Virus record (IMG/VR): IMGVR_UViG_3300021139_000006
Coordinates: 6,646 to 70,645 of that record
From: a virus
Lineage: Duplodnaviria > Caudoviricetes
Direction: 5' to 3' (one strand)
Length of the DNA: 64,000 nucleotides
Shown: positions 49,369 to 58,967 of the stretch, one piece after another
How positions within the stretch are numbered: the stretch's first letter is position 1
Layout: every line of letters begins with the position of its first letter
Made by a program: the position numbers and the translations under genes
The notes under the pieces: model-generated
The model's database searches: none
The model's input: only the letters and a program-made list of their open reading frames with translations
What the model was told of the DNA's origin: nothing

Positions 49369-49803
49369 ATGGCACTATTTGAATTAGAGGAAGTAGATAA
49401 TGGTATCTACTACAAAGTGAAGATTATAAAATCTGGTGACATTGCCGGTAAATTTTCCCTAGATGTAGATGGTTGTTACTACTTCTGGCCTGAGCCGGGT
49501 GAAGGTTTTTATAGTGATTATGTACTGCTTGAGTTAGGTACTCTCCTGAAAGAGTTGAATAAGCCTTTTTATGATTCCGTAGACGAGTACTACAATTCCA
49601 ATCGTGGAGGCTTTGGTGAATTAGAGCACAAAGGGTTTAAAGGTATTGCTGAGTATGACGAATCAGAGGAGTTGTGGCATGCTAAGGCAGTAGGTATAGA
49701 TAGTGTGACATACATCAGAGCAGAAGGAGAATCCTTCGAGGAGTTGATAAAAGATTTCGAACAAGCCGTAGAAGATTATTTACAAACAATCGATGAATTA
49801 TGA
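49369..49803 (+). CDS. Protein with C-terminal HicB-like domain
   Basis: HKGFKGIAEYD..WHAKAVGI..AEGESFEELIKDFEQAVEDYL. Confidence 0.6.
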   Translation: MALFELEEVDNGIYYKVKIIKSGDIAGKFSLDVDGCYYFWPEPGEGFYSDYVLLELGTLLKELNKPFYDSVDEYYNSNRGGFGELEHKGFKGIAEYDESEELWHAKAVGIDSVTYIRAEGESFEELIKDFEQAVEDYLQTIDEL

Positions 49804-50472: not shown

Positions 50473-51135
50473 ATGAAAAAGATACTATTAACATTTGCAA
50501 TGTGCATTTTTTGCACAATACTTTTTGCACAACACACCATAACTGTAAAGCACACTTATTATACTTTAGAGTATGATACTGTTTTGAAATCGCCTTTGAT
50601 TAGTTGGTATATCCAAACTACCGCACACGCAACTAGTACAAATAAGATAGACCGTAAGACAGTTGCGTCTTTCCATCAAGACCCTTTAATTAACCCTAAG
50701 TATCAGGTAGCCACTGACAAGGAATACCTGAACAATGGTAAATATGATAAAGGGCACCTGGCTCCATACAGTGCATTCTATTTCGACTTAACAGCTGCAA
50801 AGGAATCTATGTTGTATACAAACACAGCTCCGCAGTATTCCTTCTTTAATGAGCATCCTTATGAGCGTTTAGAGCAGCATATACTTAAAGAACTTGCCCC
50901 TGATTTTGACTCAATATATGTCTATACAGGATGTTTATATGGTAATGAAAAGATGAAGGATGTACCTGTACCAGATTATTACTGGAAGGTAATAAAATAC
51001 AACGGAAAAATAGAAGGGTGGGTGTGTCCAAATGAGTTTACTAATAACTCAGACTATACAAGATACAAAAAAGACATTGTGTTTATCCGAGATTTGATTT
51101 TAAAATATTACCCTAAGTTAAATATACCTTTTTAA
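50473..51135 (+). CDS. Secreted DNA/RNA non-specific endonuclease (NucA/Serratia type)
   Basis: Signal peptide; YDKGHLAP, NTAPQ and VPDYYWKVI motifs. Confidence 0.88.
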   Translation: MKKILLTFAMCIFCTILFAQHTITVKHTYYTLEYDTVLKSPLISWYIQTTAHATSTNKIDRKTVASFHQDPLINPKYQVATDKEYLNNGKYDKGHLAPYSAFYFDLTAAKESMLYTNTAPQYSFFNEHPYERLEQHILKELAPDFDSIYVYTGCLYGNEKMKDVPVPDYYWKVIKYNGKIEGWVCPNEFTNNSDYTRYKKDIVFIRDLILKYYPKLNIPF

Positions 51136-51138
51136 TAA

Positions 51139-51771
51139 ATGAACAGACTAAGAGTACTTATTGGTTGTGAAGAATCACAAGAGATAGCAAAGGCATTCAG
51201 AGAACTAGGTCACGAAGCATACAGTAATGACCTACAAGATTGCTCAGGTGGGCACCCAGAATGGCATATTAAGGGTGATGTACTCGAAGTTATCAAGATA
51301 AACTGCTGGGATTTAGCTATATTCCACCCAGATTGCACTTATTTGACCTGTACAGCCAATAAATGGCTGAAAGACCAGCCTGAGCGTAAATCTGGTGTAT
51401 TAGTAGGAGAACCTCGCAGAATAGCCCAAAAAGAGGCTATAGAGTTCTTTATGAAGCTATATAACTGCGATACTACCCATATTGCAATAGAAAACCCCAT
51501 AGGAGTGATGAGTAGTGCCTTCCGTAAGCCTAATCAGATACTACAACCGTGGCAATTTGGCCATGGGGAAGTTAAGGCTACCTGCCTATGGACCAGGAAC
51601 CTACCCATACTAAGCCCTACGGATGTAGTCTCAGGTAGGGTAGCTAGGTCACATAACGTCCCACCTAGTCCAGAAAGGTCTAAAATAAGGTCTAGGACCT
51701 ACCCAGGTATTGCGAAAGCAATAGCAAAGCAGTATTCAGACTACGTAATAAAATATAAAAGATGCTTCTAG
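51139..51771 (+). CDS. Phage DNA cytosine methyltransferase-like protein
   Basis: VLIGCEES, HPDCTYL, IENP and RSRTYPGIA motifs. Confidence 0.8.
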   Translation: MNRLRVLIGCEESQEIAKAFRELGHEAYSNDLQDCSGGHPEWHIKGDVLEVIKINCWDLAIFHPDCTYLTCTANKWLKDQPERKSGVLVGEPRRIAQKEAIEFFMKLYNCDTTHIAIENPIGVMSSAFRKPNQILQPWQFGHGEVKATCLWTRNLPILSPTDVVSGRVARSHNVPPSPERSKIRSRTYPGIAKAIAKQYSDYVIKYKRCF

Positions 51772-53489: not shown

Positions 53490-53528
53490 AGAGTTTAACA
53501 GGGGGACATAGTTGTCCCTTTGTTGTTT
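53472..53528 (+). terminator. Terminator preceded by a 15-bp direct duplication
   Basis: GAGTTTAACAGGGGG at 53472 and 53491; GGGGGACA/TGTCCCTT stem plus T-rich tail. Confidence 0.6.
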
Positions 53529-53928
53529 AGTATAGTGAAGTGATGGTTTAACCTCAGGGTCCAGGGGGAAGGGTAGCCGGAGCAGATCTTAGGGTTATTT
53601 TATATAATTATATATTATTTTAGATTTGGGGGATTTGGGGTGGGGTTAGAGAGGCAATCTGCTGGATCCCTCCAGCGAAAAAATTTCGTTAGTTACGAAA
53701 ATTACTACTTTTTTACGAAAAAAATAAAACGAAAACGATTGAAATTTACGATATTGGGAAACATATACCAAAAAGTTTGTCTGGTAACTTTGCAGCCCTT
53801 ATCTTTGCCATGCCATACCATTACTCACTAAAAACACCCTTAAGGGGCGACGGGTAAAGTATTGCCCATACTTTTACAATTAAAGTATGGTATTAATTAA
53901 AAGGCTTAAATAGCCACAATTTAAAGTT

Positions 53929-54657
53929 ATGAGTACAGAAGTAAACAATGTAGTAAAGGCAGTAGCAGCAAGGCAGCCAAAAGAAGTAAAGGCAGTAGCA
54001 GCAAGGCAGCCAAAAGAAGTAAAGGCAGTAATAGTAGGCAGCATTGCCGAAACCACTGCCGAAAGTATCAAAGTAGAGATACTTAAACCAATGTTATCCA
54101 ATTACAAGGCAGCAAAGGAAAGTGGTTTATTATCATTTAGGGTTGATTATATGCAGCCGCAAAGGATTGGGAAAGAAACCATATTTACCGAAGCAGCAAT
54201 GTTATTGGATAATATTAGTGTGAAAGAACTAATAAACGTACTGCCCACTAAATTAGAACACATAAGGCAACACAAAGGCAAGAGTGTTAAGTTGGTATTG
54301 AATAACGATGTTTTATTTAATATCGATATTAATGCAGCTGCTAAAATGCAGCCTTATATATTAGCCAAGTATCTTACTACATCACTATTTAGAGCTTATA
54401 GTAATGAAACAGACCTTACTGACATCGCTTTATTTATTAGCTATTTCCTTACTTTAGGCAATAGGTCAGTTTTGCCTAATATTGATGCCATAACCCTTTA
54501 TGAAAGTAAGAGGGTCGAAAAGATTATAGTAGCCACTAACTACAATAATGCAAGACAAGCAACTTTACACATCGTTTCAGATATGGCAAGCGCAAAGTTA
54601 ATAGCCGAAACTGAAACGCTACAAAATAGCCTTAACGGGTTATTGCTTAACGCTTAA
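53929..54657 (+). CDS. Orphan protein (242 aa) upstream of a large structured RNA
   Basis: Preceded by tandem TAnnTTTG promoters; N-terminal repeat VKAVAARQPKE. Confidence 0.7.
   Translation: MSTEVNNVVKAVAARQPKEVKAVAARQPKEVKAVIVGSIAETTAESIKVEILKPMLSNYKAAKESGLLSFRVDYMQPQRIGKETIFTEAAMLLDNISVKELINVLPTKLEHIRQHKGKSVKLVLNNDVLFNIDINAAAKMQPYILAKYLTTSLFRAYSNETDLTDIALFISYFLTLGNRSVLPNIDAITLYESKRVEKIIVATNYNNARQATLHIVSDMASAKLIAETETLQNSLNGLLLNA
53952..54030 (+). repeat. 33-bp tandem repeat (about 2.4 copies)
   Basis: AGTAAAGGCAGTAGCAGCAAGGCAGCCAAAAGA twice plus a partial copy, in frame. Confidence 0.9.
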
Positions 54658-54659
54658 TC

Positions 54660-55547
54660 CTTTGCAGCCTATTACACTAATTTAAGTTAGTGGGTAATGT
54701 CGGACATTAATAGGCTGCCTATTCTATCAATACAGCAATTTTGATAGGGTTTATTTAAGTGGTTAATTTGATAGGGTTAACCATTATTTTACGGCTGCAA
54801 TAAAGCAATTTTGTAGCAACTTATTAACAGTTCTTTTGTAGGTTTATTGTATTGTATTATCTTAACTGCTTAATTAATTTATTTTAGTTAGTTGCTTATC
54901 CCTTACAATAAACTTACAAAGCAAATATAATAGCTTACTATATACACAACTTAATTAAGTTAGTATGTAGTAGGCTATACTTGTTTGCACCACACCAATA
55001 AAAAAGATGACATACCACACCGAATAAGTGTGGCACAACCTTAATGTACTTTATGTACATTGGTTAATGTATATACAAAAATTTATACATTGATATAGGT
55101 ATGTGCTGCAAAATATGCGTGTGATGTGGTATGCTCATTGAGTACTATATGCTGACCTCTCTATATGTACTTTGCCGTAAGCAAGTGTATAGATGTAGCT
55201 ATGTATGTGAGTAGCGACCACATACAGTTATCCTTACAACCATAACCAATGGTAAGGTAGTCAGGCAACTACAAAAATGGATCCACATAACACGTATGCA
55301 GTAACGTGTTTAATCCCCACAAGAAGGGTAAAACAACTATAATAAACTTGCAGTCGAAAGGCTACCTATGTGAGTAGGTTAATCCCCGCAAGAAGGGTAA
55401 AGGTTGTACAATAGACTTGTATGTCTGCAAACATAGTGTAGTGGGCTTGCAGAGGGTTCGAGTCCCTCGCTACCTCAAACCACCTGGATTGCAATCCCTT
55501 GCGATTCGGGTGTGTCCGTCTATATACAATTTATAGGCGGTGTTTTT
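54660..55547 (+). ncRNA. Putative large structured non-coding RNA (about 890 nt)
   Basis: Near-continuous stems with plus-strand G-U pairs, multi-way junctions, a duplicated 22-mer, a tRNA-like T-arm and a terminal hairpin with U-tract. Confidence 0.7.
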
Positions 55548-55586
55548 AACAAGGGGTACATTAGTTACTCCACAAAAAAGTTATGT

Positions 55587-55823
55587 ATGGATTTATTAAT
55601 GCATCACACTCCTATGGGGTTCGCACCAAGAACGAACACCCTTAATATGGAGGAATTTAGTGAGCACATTAAGTTGCTCACTACCTGTAAAGGTATGGGG
55701 TTATTTGACTATATCCTATTACTAAGGAATAGCCCATGTGCTACTCATAATAAGATGGGTAGTAAATTAATCAAAGAAAACACAGAGGGACTGTGTTTTC
55801 AATTTCATCACCATAAAAATTAA
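55587..55823 (+). CDS. Hypothetical protein (likely start MDLLMH)
   Basis: ATG with A-rich leader; the track start at 55512 lies inside hairpins. Confidence 0.4.
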   Translation: MDLLMHHTPMGFAPRTNTLNMEEFSEHIKLLTTCKGMGLFDYILLLRNSPCATHNKMGSKLIKENTEGLCFQFHHHKN

Positions 55824-55827
55824 GTAT

Positions 55828-56034
55828 ATGAAAAAGAATTTGGATCTACAAGGGTATGAGTACTCTGAAAAATTATCCTCAAGGGAAAAGACTGTCCTAA
55901 TGATAGTGGTTATAGTGATGATTGCCTTTACGCTTACAAGCTGTTACCACCAACAGTACGATTGTGCTGCACATTATAAAATAACCCAGTACTACTCTGG
56001 GAGGATTACCCCTGCCTATAAATTAGCCCACTAG
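55828..56034 (+). CDS. Small putative lipoprotein
   Basis: Hydrophobic stretch followed by lipobox LTSC. Confidence 0.55.
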   Translation: MKKNLDLQGYEYSEKLSSREKTVLMIVVIVMIAFTLTSCYHQQYDCAAHYKITQYYSGRITPAYKLAH

Positions 56035-56868: not shown

Positions 56869-58134
56869 TTACTCTAAGTTAGAGTTCTTAGTTTTGACAG
56901 CCTCTTTGAATATTTGATAATACTTGTCTATGGTATTTTTACTAAGCACTTTCTTACGAGCCAATCCTTTTATAGTTATTTTACCTTCGAGTTCTAAGTC
57001 CCATTCATCTATTAACTTAGCCAATCTCTGCTTACTCTCTAATATTTTCTTCTTGACTAGTTCATCTCTGCACACTTCTAGCTTGTCTTGTGTGGATAAT
57101 TTACTCCTATTATTGTGGTCAAAGATTATATACCTGGGCTTATCGTGTATAGGGCTAAGTTCACCTTCATTCAACTGTTTGAATACTGTGTCTACAACTC
57201 TCTTCACATTAACTTCTTTGGAAGGCTTACTATAATATATTTCATTGACCCTTGACATTATCTTGTAAGCTCTGGCATAGCTTATGGAAGGGTTAAGCCA
57301 AACTAAATTTGTACAGTAGCTGAGTAAGGTTTTATATTTGTTAGAGCATTTATTTTTGAAAGGTATGTAGCAATGTATAAAAGTAAAGCCTGACCAATTG
57401 ACAATGTAGTCACAGGTAAATTCGTAGTCTTTTAGATTATTGAATCTGAGTTGTGCATAAGGGATATTTGACCCCATCTCTGCGATATATCTTATCTCTT
57501 CTTCATTTACCAACCGAAGTGGGGTCTTTTCTTTTTTATTGGATAGTACAACAGAACTGGGGTCTTTTTTATCTACGGATAATATGACAGAACTGGGGTC
57601 TTTTTCAACCTCATAAATTAAACAATCTTCATTAATAAAAATGTTAGTATCATGGCTAAGAGTAGTGTACTGAGAATGTTTACTTGCATTAGTATCCAAC
57701 AGGTGGTTGATACCTAAGTCTGTAGCAATAGTATTATAAGAACTTTTAAAGTTATCTCTAGTGATACCATTTGCCCTTACAAGTAATGTGTAACCCCTAC
57801 CTCCAAAGGAGTGGTATAAAACGAATACCTTGCTCTTGTCAAGATTGGTTGTATCAAATTCAGGAGTATCAATATCAAAGTATAATAATCCAGTAGAGCT
57901 TTCTATATTCTTATCTTTCTTGTAGCCTTTATACAGGAAGTTATAAGTAATACAAACTAGATTTAATTTAGTGGATTCATAATCTCGGATACCTTTCCTG
58001 GCCTCAATTACTTTATAGGTATGAGGGCAATTCTCTATAGCCCTTAACCAATCTCTCAGGGATACTGTACCTAATACAGTAGGTTCACTTAACTTCTTGT
58101 AGTAATTTACTACGGTTGTGTCTAGTATTGACAT
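56869..58134 (-). CDS. BT4734/VirE-N-like primase-polymerase domain protein with C-terminal HTH
   Basis: TGLLYFDID, HSFGGRG and LSHDTNIFIN motifs; C-terminal KITIKGLARKKVLSKNTI. Confidence 0.7.
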   Translation of the reverse strand: MSILDTTVVNYYKKLSEPTVLGTVSLRDWLRAIENCPHTYKVIEARKGIRDYESTKLNLVCITYNFLYKGYKKDKNIESSTGLLYFDIDTPEFDTTNLDKSKVFVLYHSFGGRGYTLLVRANGITRDNFKSSYNTIATDLGINHLLDTNASKHSQYTTLSHDTNIFINEDCLIYEVEKDPSSVILSVDKKDPSSVVLSNKKEKTPLRLVNEEEIRYIAEMGSNIPYAQLRFNNLKDYEFTCDYIVNWSGFTFIHCYIPFKNKCSNKYKTLLSYCTNLVWLNPSISYARAYKIMSRVNEIYYSKPSKEVNVKRVVDTVFKQLNEGELSPIHDKPRYIIFDHNNRSKLSTQDKLEVCRDELVKKKILESKQRLAKLIDEWDLELEGKITIKGLARKKVLSKNTIDKYYQIFKEAVKTKNSNLE

Positions 58135-58148
58135 GATAAAATAATAAA

Positions 58149-58230
58149 TCCAGTCTTTTCTGTGGTAAGGACACGTACTGGGACTGGAATATCAATAAGT
58201 TTTAGTAGTTTTTAGTATTCCTTACATACT
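58149..58230 (-). promoter_or_regulatory. Structured leader with kissing loops
   Basis: Minus-strand loops GTAAGGA (58219-58225) and TCCTTAC (58165-58171) are complementary. Confidence 0.6.
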
Positions 58231-58308
58231 ATTCTACTTATTTAGGGCATAAGTCTGAGTAATTTAGTACATTATTCAGCAGCCCTTCTTATAATAAATA
58301 TAATAAAA

Positions 58309-58482
58309 ATGAAAAGGAGAATAAAATGCAAGGTAGTAAGGCTTAAAAACGATGCTTTACTACTACTCTTTGGTATAAAACCTAGGAGAAATAGACTGAA
58401 ATTTAATAAAATAAAGGTAAAAGAAAGGGAAATTACCCCTGAATTATTTAATAAATGGAGTGAGGCTGTCTTTAAACGATAG
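58309..58482 (+). CDS. Small basic hypothetical protein (57 aa)
   Basis: Manual translation MKRRIKCKVVRLKND..; below the ORF-track cutoff. Confidence 0.35.
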   Translation: MKRRIKCKVVRLKNDALLLLFGIKPRRNRLKFNKIKVKEREITPELFNKWSEAVFKR

Positions 58483-58590
58483 CCTTTTTTGATTGATTCT
58501 AGCCTCAAGGTTAGACTTTAGGTGTGTGAGTAGGGTGATTACCTTACTCTTTTATTTTCATGCCCTTAATGGGGCTTAAAACGAATCCGT

Positions 58591-58740
58591 ATGATTAAGA
58601 TTATTGGAGTATCCCTAATGGTACTGGGGATAATAATGTGCATACATAATAGAGTTGGGGGAGGAGTCGTAGCTTTTCTCCTGGGAGTATTGCTTGCTAT
58701 GGAAGGGGATGATGACGAAGGTTTACCACATGGGGTTTAA
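58591..58740 (+). CDS. Small two-TM membrane protein (49 aa)
   Basis: Manual translation MIKIIGVSLMVLGIIMCIHNRVGGGVVAFLLGVLLAMEGDDDEGLPHGV. Confidence 0.5.
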   Translation: MIKIIGVSLMVLGIIMCIHNRVGGGVVAFLLGVLLAMEGDDDEGLPHGV

Positions 58741-58825
58741 TGGGGGGAGGTTTTATATAAAATGGTAAAATAGTATTAATTTTTGGTAAGATCTGCTCAA
58801 AAAGCAGATACCCTCCCCTCCGCCT

Positions 58826-58850
58826 CCCACTTTTTACCACTTTTTCCCAC
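58826..58850. repeat. Three CCAC boxes at 10-bp spacing (MraZ-box-like)
   Basis: Reverse complement reads GTGGGAAAAAGTGGTAAAAAGTGGG. Confidence 0.6.
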
Positions 58851-58967
58851 CTATGCAAAAACTTTTTATATATCCATTCTACGGATATTCAATTCAGTAG
58901 AATAATATTCTATAAAACCTCCTCCTAGTAGTATTTTATTTTTTTAATTAAATAAAAAAAACAAGCT

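Follow-up and report, generated by a model that had tools for sequence, protein, structure and literature searches.

An open-reading-frame-free region of about 890 nt, ending in a tRNA-like fold behind a 242-aa protein gene of an uncultured phage, as a candidate rare family of large phage RNAs

We analysed a 64-kb stretch of phage DNA (bases 6646–70645 of the 70,645-bp IMG/VR virus record IMGVR_UViG_3300021139_000006; this whole stretch is called the window), in which a gene for a 242-aa protein is followed by ~890 nt without a credible open reading frame (ORF). We observed that this region ends in a tRNA-like fold, and it very probably belongs to a real family of structured RNAs made from the plus strand. 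Our overall best reading, to which we give a probability of about one half, is that it represents a new and rare family of large phage RNAs, which is co-transcribed with the protein gene and probably cut by tRNA enzymes. A preliminary description of the window had interpreted the region as a large phage RNA, either of a new class or a divergent member of the GOLLD or ROOL classes, possibly partnered with the upstream protein. Its observation of a structured region free of ORFs is confirmed and its interpretation is partly supported; the most informative feature, the tRNA-like domain with its T arm, was absent from it.

The largest ORFs inside the region encode 39 aa on the plus strand (55417–55536) and 35–42 aa on the minus strand. 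The minimum free energy (MFE) of the plus strand is −280.4 kcal/mol against −214.2 (sd 5.4) for its shuffles, a z of −12.3, and the minus strand has a z of −6.0 (20 shuffles for each strand). For the three thirds of the region, the plus/minus z values are −4.6/−2.9, −6.6/−2.8 and −3.8/−1.5 (100 shuffles each). We compared this locus with three others, namely L006 (also L004) and L007 (also L005 and L008) from IMG/VR, and L010, a metagenome contig of 2293 nt. In all four, the MFE of the plus strand lies below that of the minus strand, by 44–71 kcal/mol; the z values for L010 are −8.6 (plus) and −4.5 (minus).

The non-Watson–Crick positions of the long stems had been described as repeatedly G–U on the plus strand. 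In a stem search that scored G·T and A·C alike, the window stems of at least 11 Watson–Crick pairs contained four G·T, two T·T and no A·C, and the stems of this class in the window and L010 together contained eight G·T and no A·C. The same class has no G·T and two A·C in L007, and neither of them in L006. The strand asymmetry, the G·U pairs, the compensatory changes in relatives and the presence of a promoter and a terminator bear out the earlier view that the stems belong to a plus-strand RNA and are not DNA palindromes. None of the 4227 models of Rfam 15 matched the whole window at its gathering score, and there was likewise no Rfam family match in L006, L007 or L010. At E ≤ 10 with permissive filters, a 1.4-kb stretch gave only noise, including a tRNA-Sec row of 15.9 bits at 55402–55474.

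The 3′ part of the region folds into the tRNA-like domain (Table 1). Its T arm is canonical (GAGGG-UUCGAGU-CCCUC, 55452–55468), and the acceptor is formed by AGGUAGU (55255–61) pairing with GCUACCU (55469–75), which directly continues the 3′ strand of the T arm. The 7 pairs of the acceptor and the 5 of the T stem give 12 stacked pairs, as in tRNA, with a loop of the 7-nt UUCGANU class; this arrangement is kept in all four loci, as is a C directly after the acceptor, followed by AA, and CCA is encoded in none of them. The helices P2a and P2b stand in for an anticodon arm and enclose ~160 nt in this phage. The interior of the domain is made of two units 69 nt apart (55310–55350 and 55379–55419), each consisting of a small hairpin with an 8-nt loop and then UUAAUCCCCNCAAGAAGGGUAAA. 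Only one such unit is present in L007, which has lost one 69-nt unit and gained 7 nt (a net indel of 62 nt). In L010 the domain has 78 nt and folds by itself into a cloverleaf of four arms, in which a D-like arm of 3 bp with a GG-containing loop and a long arm resembling an anticodon arm accompany the acceptor and the T arm.

This T arm is the only signal of the tRNA model in the 70.6-kb record (12.1 bits against a cut-off of 29). A canonical tRNA was rejected, as the T arm alone matches the model and ARAGORN called no tRNA or tmRNA gene in the window or in L010. In a comparison of all four loci, the acceptor, P2a and the T stem have 17 pairs, of which five are changed on both sides and one on one side, and two positions have a non-pair; three of the loci are near-identical in the 3′ domain, and covariation there comes from the distant L010 only. 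In a variant of the locus seen in run X4, the U·G at 55261/55469 becomes U–A. The tRNA-like fold is the MFE structure of each isolated domain that was folded (window, L007 and L010), and forcing it in the full-length RNA costs 1.4–4.5 kcal/mol (window, L006 and L010). Between the window and L006 the domain is 97.3% identical (6 mismatches in 220), and the terminator, the flanking genes and the 5′ untranslated region (5′ UTR) are 79–90% identical.

The first 24 bases of the RNA (54657–54680) can also pair with 55433–55458, a segment spanning the 3′ strands of both P2b and P2a together with the 5′ strand of the T stem. This 24-bp duplex has an energy of −35.8 kcal/mol, compared with a mean of −15.0 (sd 2.4) for shuffled segments, none of which reached it in 400 trials. 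The pairing is specific to the window, being absent from L006 and L007 and marginal in L010, and it could be a conformational switch. A family-wide 5′–3′ panhandle was rejected on the numbers of shuffles that reached the observed value, which were 0 of 300 for the window, 119 of 300 for L006, 99 of 300 for L007 and 15 of 300 for L010.

Next, we consider how the relatives differ from the window. All four loci have the layout of an ORF, 870–1000 nt free of ORFs, the T arm with the acceptor, and a gene whose product starts with MKKNL (at 55828 in the window). The two IMG/VR contigs, L006 and L007, align collinearly with the window; the left flank is 84–90% identical until ~40–70 nt into the ORF, and the similarity of the right flank resumes at 55248 in L006 and at 55174 in L007. 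Between the flanks, the body of the ORF and ~600 nt of non-coding sequence are both replaced. The replacing ORFs, of 226 aa and 174 aa, show a weak mutual similarity (E 6e-4) and, beyond their first 14 residues, are unrelated to the 242-aa family; we call them type B, and the ORFs of the window and L010 type A. L010 has a type-A ORF of 252 aa (39% identity), then 872 nt without an ORF longer than 54 aa, and then the MKKNL gene. In L006 and L007, the slot of the 242-aa gene is filled by an unrelated ORF. A swap of the ORF and the RNA body between near-identical phages is a pattern known from accessory and counter-defence loci.

The family is rare, with four loci in the collections searched. No match to the region was found by blastn in 50,697 phage records, and exact-pattern and protein scans of IMG/VR returned the same two contigs each time. 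A protein-alignment scan matched 320 stretches in IMG/VR, none of which was confirmed, and 303 stretches in metagenomes, of which one was confirmed (L010); a pattern scan of metagenomes gave no matches. One further locus, L001, matched weakly in a protein scan (33 residues) and was dropped, having no nucleotide similarity. A motif of 20 specified bases had a single match among genome contigs, in a coding region of a Saprospiraceae metagenome-assembled genome with no tRNA nearby, and this was taken as chance. No published description of this RNA turned up in the literature searched. In part of its text, PMC10690425 reports a screen of IMG/VR for structured RNAs with candidates of at most 151 nt; its supplementary tables might list fragments.

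The 5′ body of the RNA, of ~600 nt, is hairpin-rich and fast-evolving. All the stems that had been proposed in the region exist. The 11-bp stem 54664–54674/54708–54718 is 100% complementary, and the 17-bp stem 54835–54851/54904–54920 is 94% complementary, its one mismatch being a G·U on the plus strand. Within the hairpin proposed at 54921–54988, positions 54930–54978 form 14 Watson–Crick and two G·U pairs, and the two closing hairpins followed by TGTTTTT are present. Of the multi-branched domain proposed at 55007–55138, the hairpins at 55014–55036, 55038–55061 and 55063–55094 are robust, whereas the domain as a whole hinges on the MFE model. Read as minus strand, the first of these hairpins precedes a T run and has the score of a terminator-like site (55011–55037).

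The three-way junction behind the stop codon recurs in L006 and L007, where equal architecture is made from different sequences; its 19 pairs comprise seven invariant, one changed on one side and 11 changed on both sides, and none is broken. The hairpins X and Y, compared with L007, also have 19 pairs, with 10 invariant, two changed on one side, seven changed on both sides and none broken. Together, the 5′ modules thus have 38 pairs (17 invariant, three one-sided, 18 both-sided and none broken), but these helices were aligned by structure, which inflates the compensatory counts, and the recurrence of an architecture at the equal place with invariant loops is a stronger argument than the pair counts. 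The X4 variant has A>G changes at 54942 and 54949, both opposite U, which turn A–U into G·U; a loose end of it also shows a G–C to A–U swap in hairpin 2 of the junction.

Several of the hairpins keep a common type of loop. We scanned the 64 kb for loops of 7–10 nt that start with UAC or UAA and end with AUU on stems of at least 6 pairs. Six of the eight hairpins found lie inside this 1.7-kb unit, five of them with a UA(C/A)...AAUU loop, and the minus strand has none. The 10-nt version of the loop occurs three times in the window and three times in L010, which have type-A ORFs, and in neither L006 nor L007, which have type-B ORFs; the loop of the third such hairpin has a near-identical form, UACGAAAAUU, in two copies in L010. 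This loop is the only sequence-level hint that might tie the RNA body to the type-A protein, at two loci against two. A 7-nt complementarity of the Y loop to the 3′ strand of the acceptor was dismissed as not significant, since 67 of 500 and 113 of 500 shuffles reached it.

The tandem TAnnTTTG promoters that had been proposed upstream of the ORF are present on the plus strand. In the window, the Bacteroidota promoter pattern TTTG-N17–23-TAnnTTTG occurs 11 times where 3.7 are expected, and none of 100 shuffles reached 11. From 53800 to 55900 the plus strand has no other TAnnTTTG, hence none inside the ORF or the RNA. Plus-strand terminators are found at 53496–53525, which ends the preceding genes, and at 55516–55540; in the stem of the latter, three of the nine pairs are altered on both sides with respect to L006 and L007. 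Because the promoter lies upstream, the terminator lies at the end and no TAnnTTTG stands between them, the ORF and the 890 nt would, by their sequence signals, form one transcription unit.

The 5′ UTR of this unit contains two mutually exclusive hairpins, the second of which is followed by a U/A-rich run. Of the eight pairs of the 9-bp hairpin that adjoin its loop, four differ on both sides between L010 and the window group, all eight still pair, and the loop UAC(A/G)AUU is retained. This element resembles a leader, an attenuator or an operator bound by a protein. The terminator and the 5′ UTR hairpin are capped by one and the same 7-nt loop, UACAAUU.

The 242-aa ORF is, judged from its pattern of substitutions, a real gene: the X4 variant of the locus is mostly 85–95% alike, and third codon positions take 16 of the 19 differences listed for 54468–54606. 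Near its N-terminus, at 53951–53985, the ORF has an in-frame tandem repeat of 33 nt (11 aa, KAVAARQPKEV), of which a one-copy form, made by an in-frame skip of 53951–53985, is seen in run X3 and in the protein P0001. The protein had been called an orphan. No family library names it, with nothing above the cut-offs of Pfam, PHROG, PADLOC or NCBIfam, but it is not without relatives. A word-index protein search found two near-identical proteins, and a HMMER scan of 1.84 billion representatives gave four at E ≤ 0.001: P0001, which is near-identical, and three that are only 29–43% identical (P0003, 43%; P0004, 39%; P0005, 29%). Searches with the ORF and with P0005 by tblastn had no match in the 50,697 phage records. 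The Atlas offered no usable match for the protein, and a PDB profile search gave none. In two AlphaFold models (pLDDT 67 and 71.5), the N-terminus is disordered or helical, helices lie between two beta-hairpins, and a helix of ~55 residues forms the C-terminus; neither model had a Foldseek match in the PDB at E ≤ 0.001.

Residues 25–131 of P0003 match weakly the C-terminal third of Cas7f/Cas7fv (PADLOC Cas7f, E 1e-5 and 23 bits; PADLOC Cas7fv, E 2.1e-5; NCBIfam Cas7fv, 16.6 bits against a cut-off of 200; the PDB Cas7fv chain 5o6u_C, E 0.018). That the ORF encodes a Cas7 protein of type I-F or I-Fv was rejected, as P0003 is the only one of the six proteins scanned that matches and the three other type-A proteins do not. 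There was also no Cas7 chain among the best 50 Foldseek rows of either model, and we regard the similarity of P0003 to Cas7 as a lead and not a finding. A Ribosomal_L19 signal is sub-threshold and is likewise only a lead.

Table 1. Predicted features of the transcription unit (positions in the window)
Feature	Position	Strand	Description
Bacteroidota-type promoter	53776..53807	+	TTTG (−33) at 53776; two TAnnTTTG (−7) at 53785 and 53800
5′ UTR element	53852..53890	+	Hairpin 53866–53890 (9 bp, loop UACAAUU), overlapping the alternative hairpin 53852–53867
242-aa protein gene (type A)	53929..54657	+	By its sequence a real coding gene; no known family
Whole structured RNA region, ~890 nt	54658..55547	+	ORF-free; starts one base past the ORF stop and ends in the terminator
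Three-way junction (outer stem and two hairpins)	54664..54718	+	Directly behind the stop codon
Two hairpins with a common 10-nt loop, UA(C/A)AGCAAUU, and different stems	54721–54750, 54794–54817	+	Another hairpin lies between them
17-bp stem around a branched insert	54835..54920	+	
Long hairpin	54921..54988	+	AAUU loop; two G·U pairs
Third hairpin with a 10-nt loop	55063..55094	+	Loop UACAAAAAUU; 11-bp stem
Hairpins X and Y	55160..55231	+	Loop CGUAA (X) and loop AGUAGCGAC (Y); loops identical in L007, stems differ
tRNA-like domain	55255..55475	+	Acceptor 55255–61/55469–75; P2a 55262–66/55445–49; P2b 55268–73/55437–42; T arm 55452–55468
14-bp hairpin	55481..55512	+	Three G·U pairs; between the tRNA-like domain and the terminator
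Intrinsic terminator	55516..55547	+	9-bp stem, loop UACAAUU, then UGUUUUU

A minihelix of acceptor and T arm is the shape of substrate that is recognised by RNase P, by the 3′ trimming enzymes and for CCA addition. From the features above, we propose that an early-region unit, running from the promoter to the terminator, would yield an mRNA for the 242-aa protein together with the folded RNA of ~890 nt. The minihelix would be recognised by host tRNA-processing enzymes, with an RNase P cut at 55254/55255 and trimming of the 3′ side just behind 55475. The cutting would separate and stabilise the pieces of RNA, by the same logic as for GOLLD and ROOL near tRNAs and for MALAT1/mascRNA. We consider this processing through the tRNA-like domain to be likely. 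The hairpin-rich body might then act as a scaffold or a sponge for a protein, most simply for the one encoded just upstream, and this partnership is put forward only tentatively.

Several observations weigh against this reading. The family consists of four loci and one read-level variant. The strong thermodynamic signal is confined to the type-A loci; the plus-strand z values of the type-B loci, −2.1 for L006 and −4.5 for L007 (20 shuffles each), are unremarkable to moderate. When all stems of at least 8 pairs are taken, the excess of G·T is weak (26:14 against 142:105 in the control). The MFE structure of the RNA in the window adopts the 24-bp long-range pairing, which excludes both the junction and the tRNA-like fold. 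The ORF slot is filled by two unrelated protein families, which weakens a strict protein–RNA coupling, and L010, with its type-A ORF, has the start motifs UUUUACCC and UGCAAAGUAGG in common with the type-B RNAs; the modules are thus not strictly tied to the type of ORF. Neither the type-A nor the type-B protein has a recognisable RNA-binding fold. The transcript, its ends and its processing are all inferred from DNA, as none of the nine runs listed with the stretch is an RNA run and the four that were aligned to it are DNA contigs. The use of structure in aligning the 5′ modules and the near-identity of three loci in the 3′ domain, given above, count on the same side.

The alternative that survives best, though we think it unlikely, is an element that acts in cis only, that is, a long structured 3′ UTR with a tRNA-like punctuation or processing signal, which would stabilise or time the upstream mRNA and separate it from the downstream genes with no role in trans. 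It would fit with the co-transcription with the ORF that all the sequence signs indicate, with an ORF that varies while the RNA stays, and with the UACAAUU loop at both ends of the unit. In L010, the tRNA-like element is followed by the next gene after ~29 nt and has no terminator, as punctuation would be. However, the ~600 nt of modules with conserved architecture (the junction, X and Y) far exceed the need of a stabiliser, and the 97% conservation of the tRNA-like interior implies a sequence-specific recognition beyond that of a processing signal.

The asymmetry of folding between the strands in all four loci and the count of eight G·T against no A·C in the strong stems of the window and L010 also speak against a second alternative, a replication origin. 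Here the hairpins and repeats would act as DNA, as single-stranded DNA (ssDNA) or through a primer transcript like RNA II of ColE1, and the upstream ORF would be the cognate initiator. Such an initiator would explain why the ORF and the repeats vary together, and the two are indeed swapped as a cassette between close relatives. The local G+C content has its lowest value in the neighbourhood (0.27–0.29) at 54650–55100, and ssDNA could tolerate G·T too. Two sub-threshold matches point the same way: that of the L010 ORF to Bac_RepA_C (E 0.011, 16.7 bits against a cut-off of 25, in one of six family members) and that of the gene at 56869–58134 to a BT4734-like (primase-associated) N-terminal domain. 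Nevertheless, the combination of a canonical T arm and an acceptor stem is a feature of RNA, and the unit is framed by a promoter and a terminator. The repeats are two-copy and hairpin-forming, with no multi-copy iterons, and the recognisable primase gene lies 30 kb off. We consider an origin improbable.

Membership in GOLLD or ROOL, which the preliminary description had offered beside a new class, is very improbable: the size and the phage setting near tRNA-type elements are alike, but the 4227 Rfam models gave no match at the gathering score, and neither covariance model matched the window, L006, L007 or L010 at that score or, at E ≤ 10, the 1.4-kb stretch or L010. The other part of that proposal, a class outside the known families, agrees with the lack of any Rfam match.

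Since the attachment sites of phages frequently contain the T arm of a tRNA gene along with its 3′ acceptor strand, the tRNA-like piece might be an attP copied from the 3′ end of a host tRNA gene. This is extremely improbable: no exact match to the 23 nt of the T arm and acceptor strand occurs among 185,579 species, each represented by one genome, and the 70.6-kb record (which is ~39% complete) contains no Phage_integrase domain. The cultured phage closest to this one is a lytic, T4-like myovirus. The 3′ strand has a conserved pairing partner on the 5′ side, 210 nt upstream, and the pairs show compensatory changes in L010, making a whole domain and no fragment. Equally remote is the proposal that conserved small ORFs account for the region, for although an ORF of 39–44 aa (55417–55536 in the window) recurs in L004 and L007, this follows only from nucleotide conservation, the differences keep the RNA pairs and alter the peptide, L010 has no counterpart, and the 62-nt net indel of L007 is not a multiple of 3.

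A bolder extension of the preferred reading, that of a new large RNA cut by tRNA enzymes, is quite unlikely in our opinion. The unit might make a phage ribonucleoprotein (RNP) of a new kind, in which a large modular RNA with a covalently joined tRNA mimic works with an interchangeable protein partner encoded upstream as a decoy or sponge in counter-defence. Host tRNA enzymes would release or expose the mimic, the target being, for example, tRNA-targeting or RNA-guided host immunity, and the 24-bp pairing would hide the mimic until processing or binding of the protein. It would explain why the protein and the RNA body are swapped while the tRNA mimic is frozen.

To our knowledge, few classes of bacterial or phage RNA above 500 nt have been described, among them GOLLD, ROOL, OLE, HEARO and raiA; what most of them do is open, and their frequent siting beside tRNAs is unexplained. 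With a large structured RNA and a tRNA mimic in one predicted transcript behind a protein gene, maturation by tRNA-processing enzymes becomes directly testable, and the upstream protein is a natural candidate for an RNP. Flavobacterium myoviruses are the closest relatives in culture, which may put a tractable model within reach.

The record is of ~39% completeness by CheckV. On its minus strand, the window carries genes for the major head protein, the large terminase, baseplate proteins and a primase, and a plus-strand block of small genes runs from 46.5 kb onward. The terminase has its best match in Flavobacterium phage vB_FspM_immuto, a 160-kb myovirus (41% amino acid identity), and the DNA runs that contain the stretch are labelled as freshwater or lake metagenomes. 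The source is probably an uncultured T4-like phage of a Flavobacterium-type host among the freshwater Bacteroidota. No reverse transcriptase was found in the record.

Some further features of the neighbourhood may be recorded. Upstream of the unit, the conserved non-coding stretch from the preceding terminator to the promoter (53526–53775) is 85–91% identical to L006 and L007 and contains a G-run block (~53626–53650) and repeated UUACGAAAA-like motifs (53690–53760). Downstream, ~280 nt (55548–55827) separate the terminator from the MKKNL gene in the window and are also found in L006, being nearly absent from L007 and L010; they include a possible ORF of 58 aa (55646–55823). Among the early genes nearby, those at 49369–49803 and 51139–51771 encode a protein with a HicB-like antitoxin domain and a DNA methyltransferase, respectively, and that at 50473–51135 a non-specific endonuclease. 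A second stretch without an ORF of at least 80 aa, of 830 nt (58135–58967), lies between a minus-strand gene of 421 aa and the next plus-strand genes and has hairpins and a C-rich tract near 58810–58850.

We compared the RNA with known systems. Part of the literature on GOLLD describes a 3′ region that is conserved and a 5′ region that varies, and places GOLLD and ROOL next to tRNAs. Like them, the RNA described here is phage-encoded, falls in the range of 0.6–0.9 kb and stands beside or around tRNA-type elements. With GOLLD it further shares a variable 5′ body, a conserved 3′ domain and a tRNA-type element, which is a resemblance of layout only. Unlike in GOLLD and ROOL, the conserved 3′ part is itself the tRNA-like domain, the RNA follows directly behind a protein gene in one unit, and the body is, as far as visible, made mostly of long simple hairpins and not of ornate pseudoknotted folds.

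tmRNA has the same topology: its two ends pair into an acceptor that stacks on the T arm, and where a tRNA has its anticodon arm, a long helix connects to a large internal domain. However, there is neither an ARAGORN call nor a match to an Rfam tmRNA model here, no CCA is encoded, and the third acceptor pair is G–C (window, L006 and L007) or A–U (L010) and not G·U, the G3:U70 identity pair for alanine. A conserved tag frame is also lacking, as L007 has the 62-nt net indel and L010 is without the internal domain.

The protein-sponge RNAs CsrB and RsmZ have the binding motif GGA. As in these, several hairpins of the present RNA keep a loop motif while their stems differ; unlike in these, the motif, UAC...AAUU, is unrelated to GGA and has no known binding protein. 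A type III toxin–antitoxin locus (ToxIN-like) was rejected, since the repeats occur in two copies only and none of the ORFs of the four loci belongs to a PADLOC family. Mimicry of CRISPR repeats was likewise looked for in these loci, and the only match was a weak one to CRISPR-DR41 in L010 (22.7 bits against 36).

For 3′ processing at a tRNA-like fold, MALAT1/mascRNA and the phage RNAs matured by RNase P, C4 of P1/P7 and CI of P4, are precedents. The present RNA resembles these in having a tRNA-like fold, here as a prediction of folding only, at the 3′ side of a longer RNA, which could recruit RNase P; the Rfam mascRNA model itself had no match on the window.

An aberrant tRNA is found in the cultured phage vB_FspM_immuto_13-6C (MW353177.1 20247–20330; L017 3748–3831). 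This annotated tRNA-Cys has normal acceptor, D and T arms and a 32-nt replacement of the anticodon region; it scores 32.3 bits with the Rfam tRNA model and is not called by ARAGORN. It is linked to the present domain by the lineage of the terminase and by a discriminator C followed by A-rich sequence. It differs from the domain in being 85 nt long, in lying in a tRNA cluster and in passing the tRNA model, and no homologue of the large RNA or of the ORF was found in the phage-record collection that contains immuto. By analogy, this tRNA suggests where a tRNA-like domain of this kind could originate.

Finally, for the pairing of a phage protein with a tRNA-like RNA, a precedent is available in the phage anti-CRISPR AcrIIIA1, a protein that, according to part of the account in PMC11662646, works with tRNA- and tmRNA-derived RNAs in counter-defence. 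The RNAs in that case are fragments of host or phage t(m)RNAs, unlike the present one, which would be a dedicated RNA of 0.9 kb.

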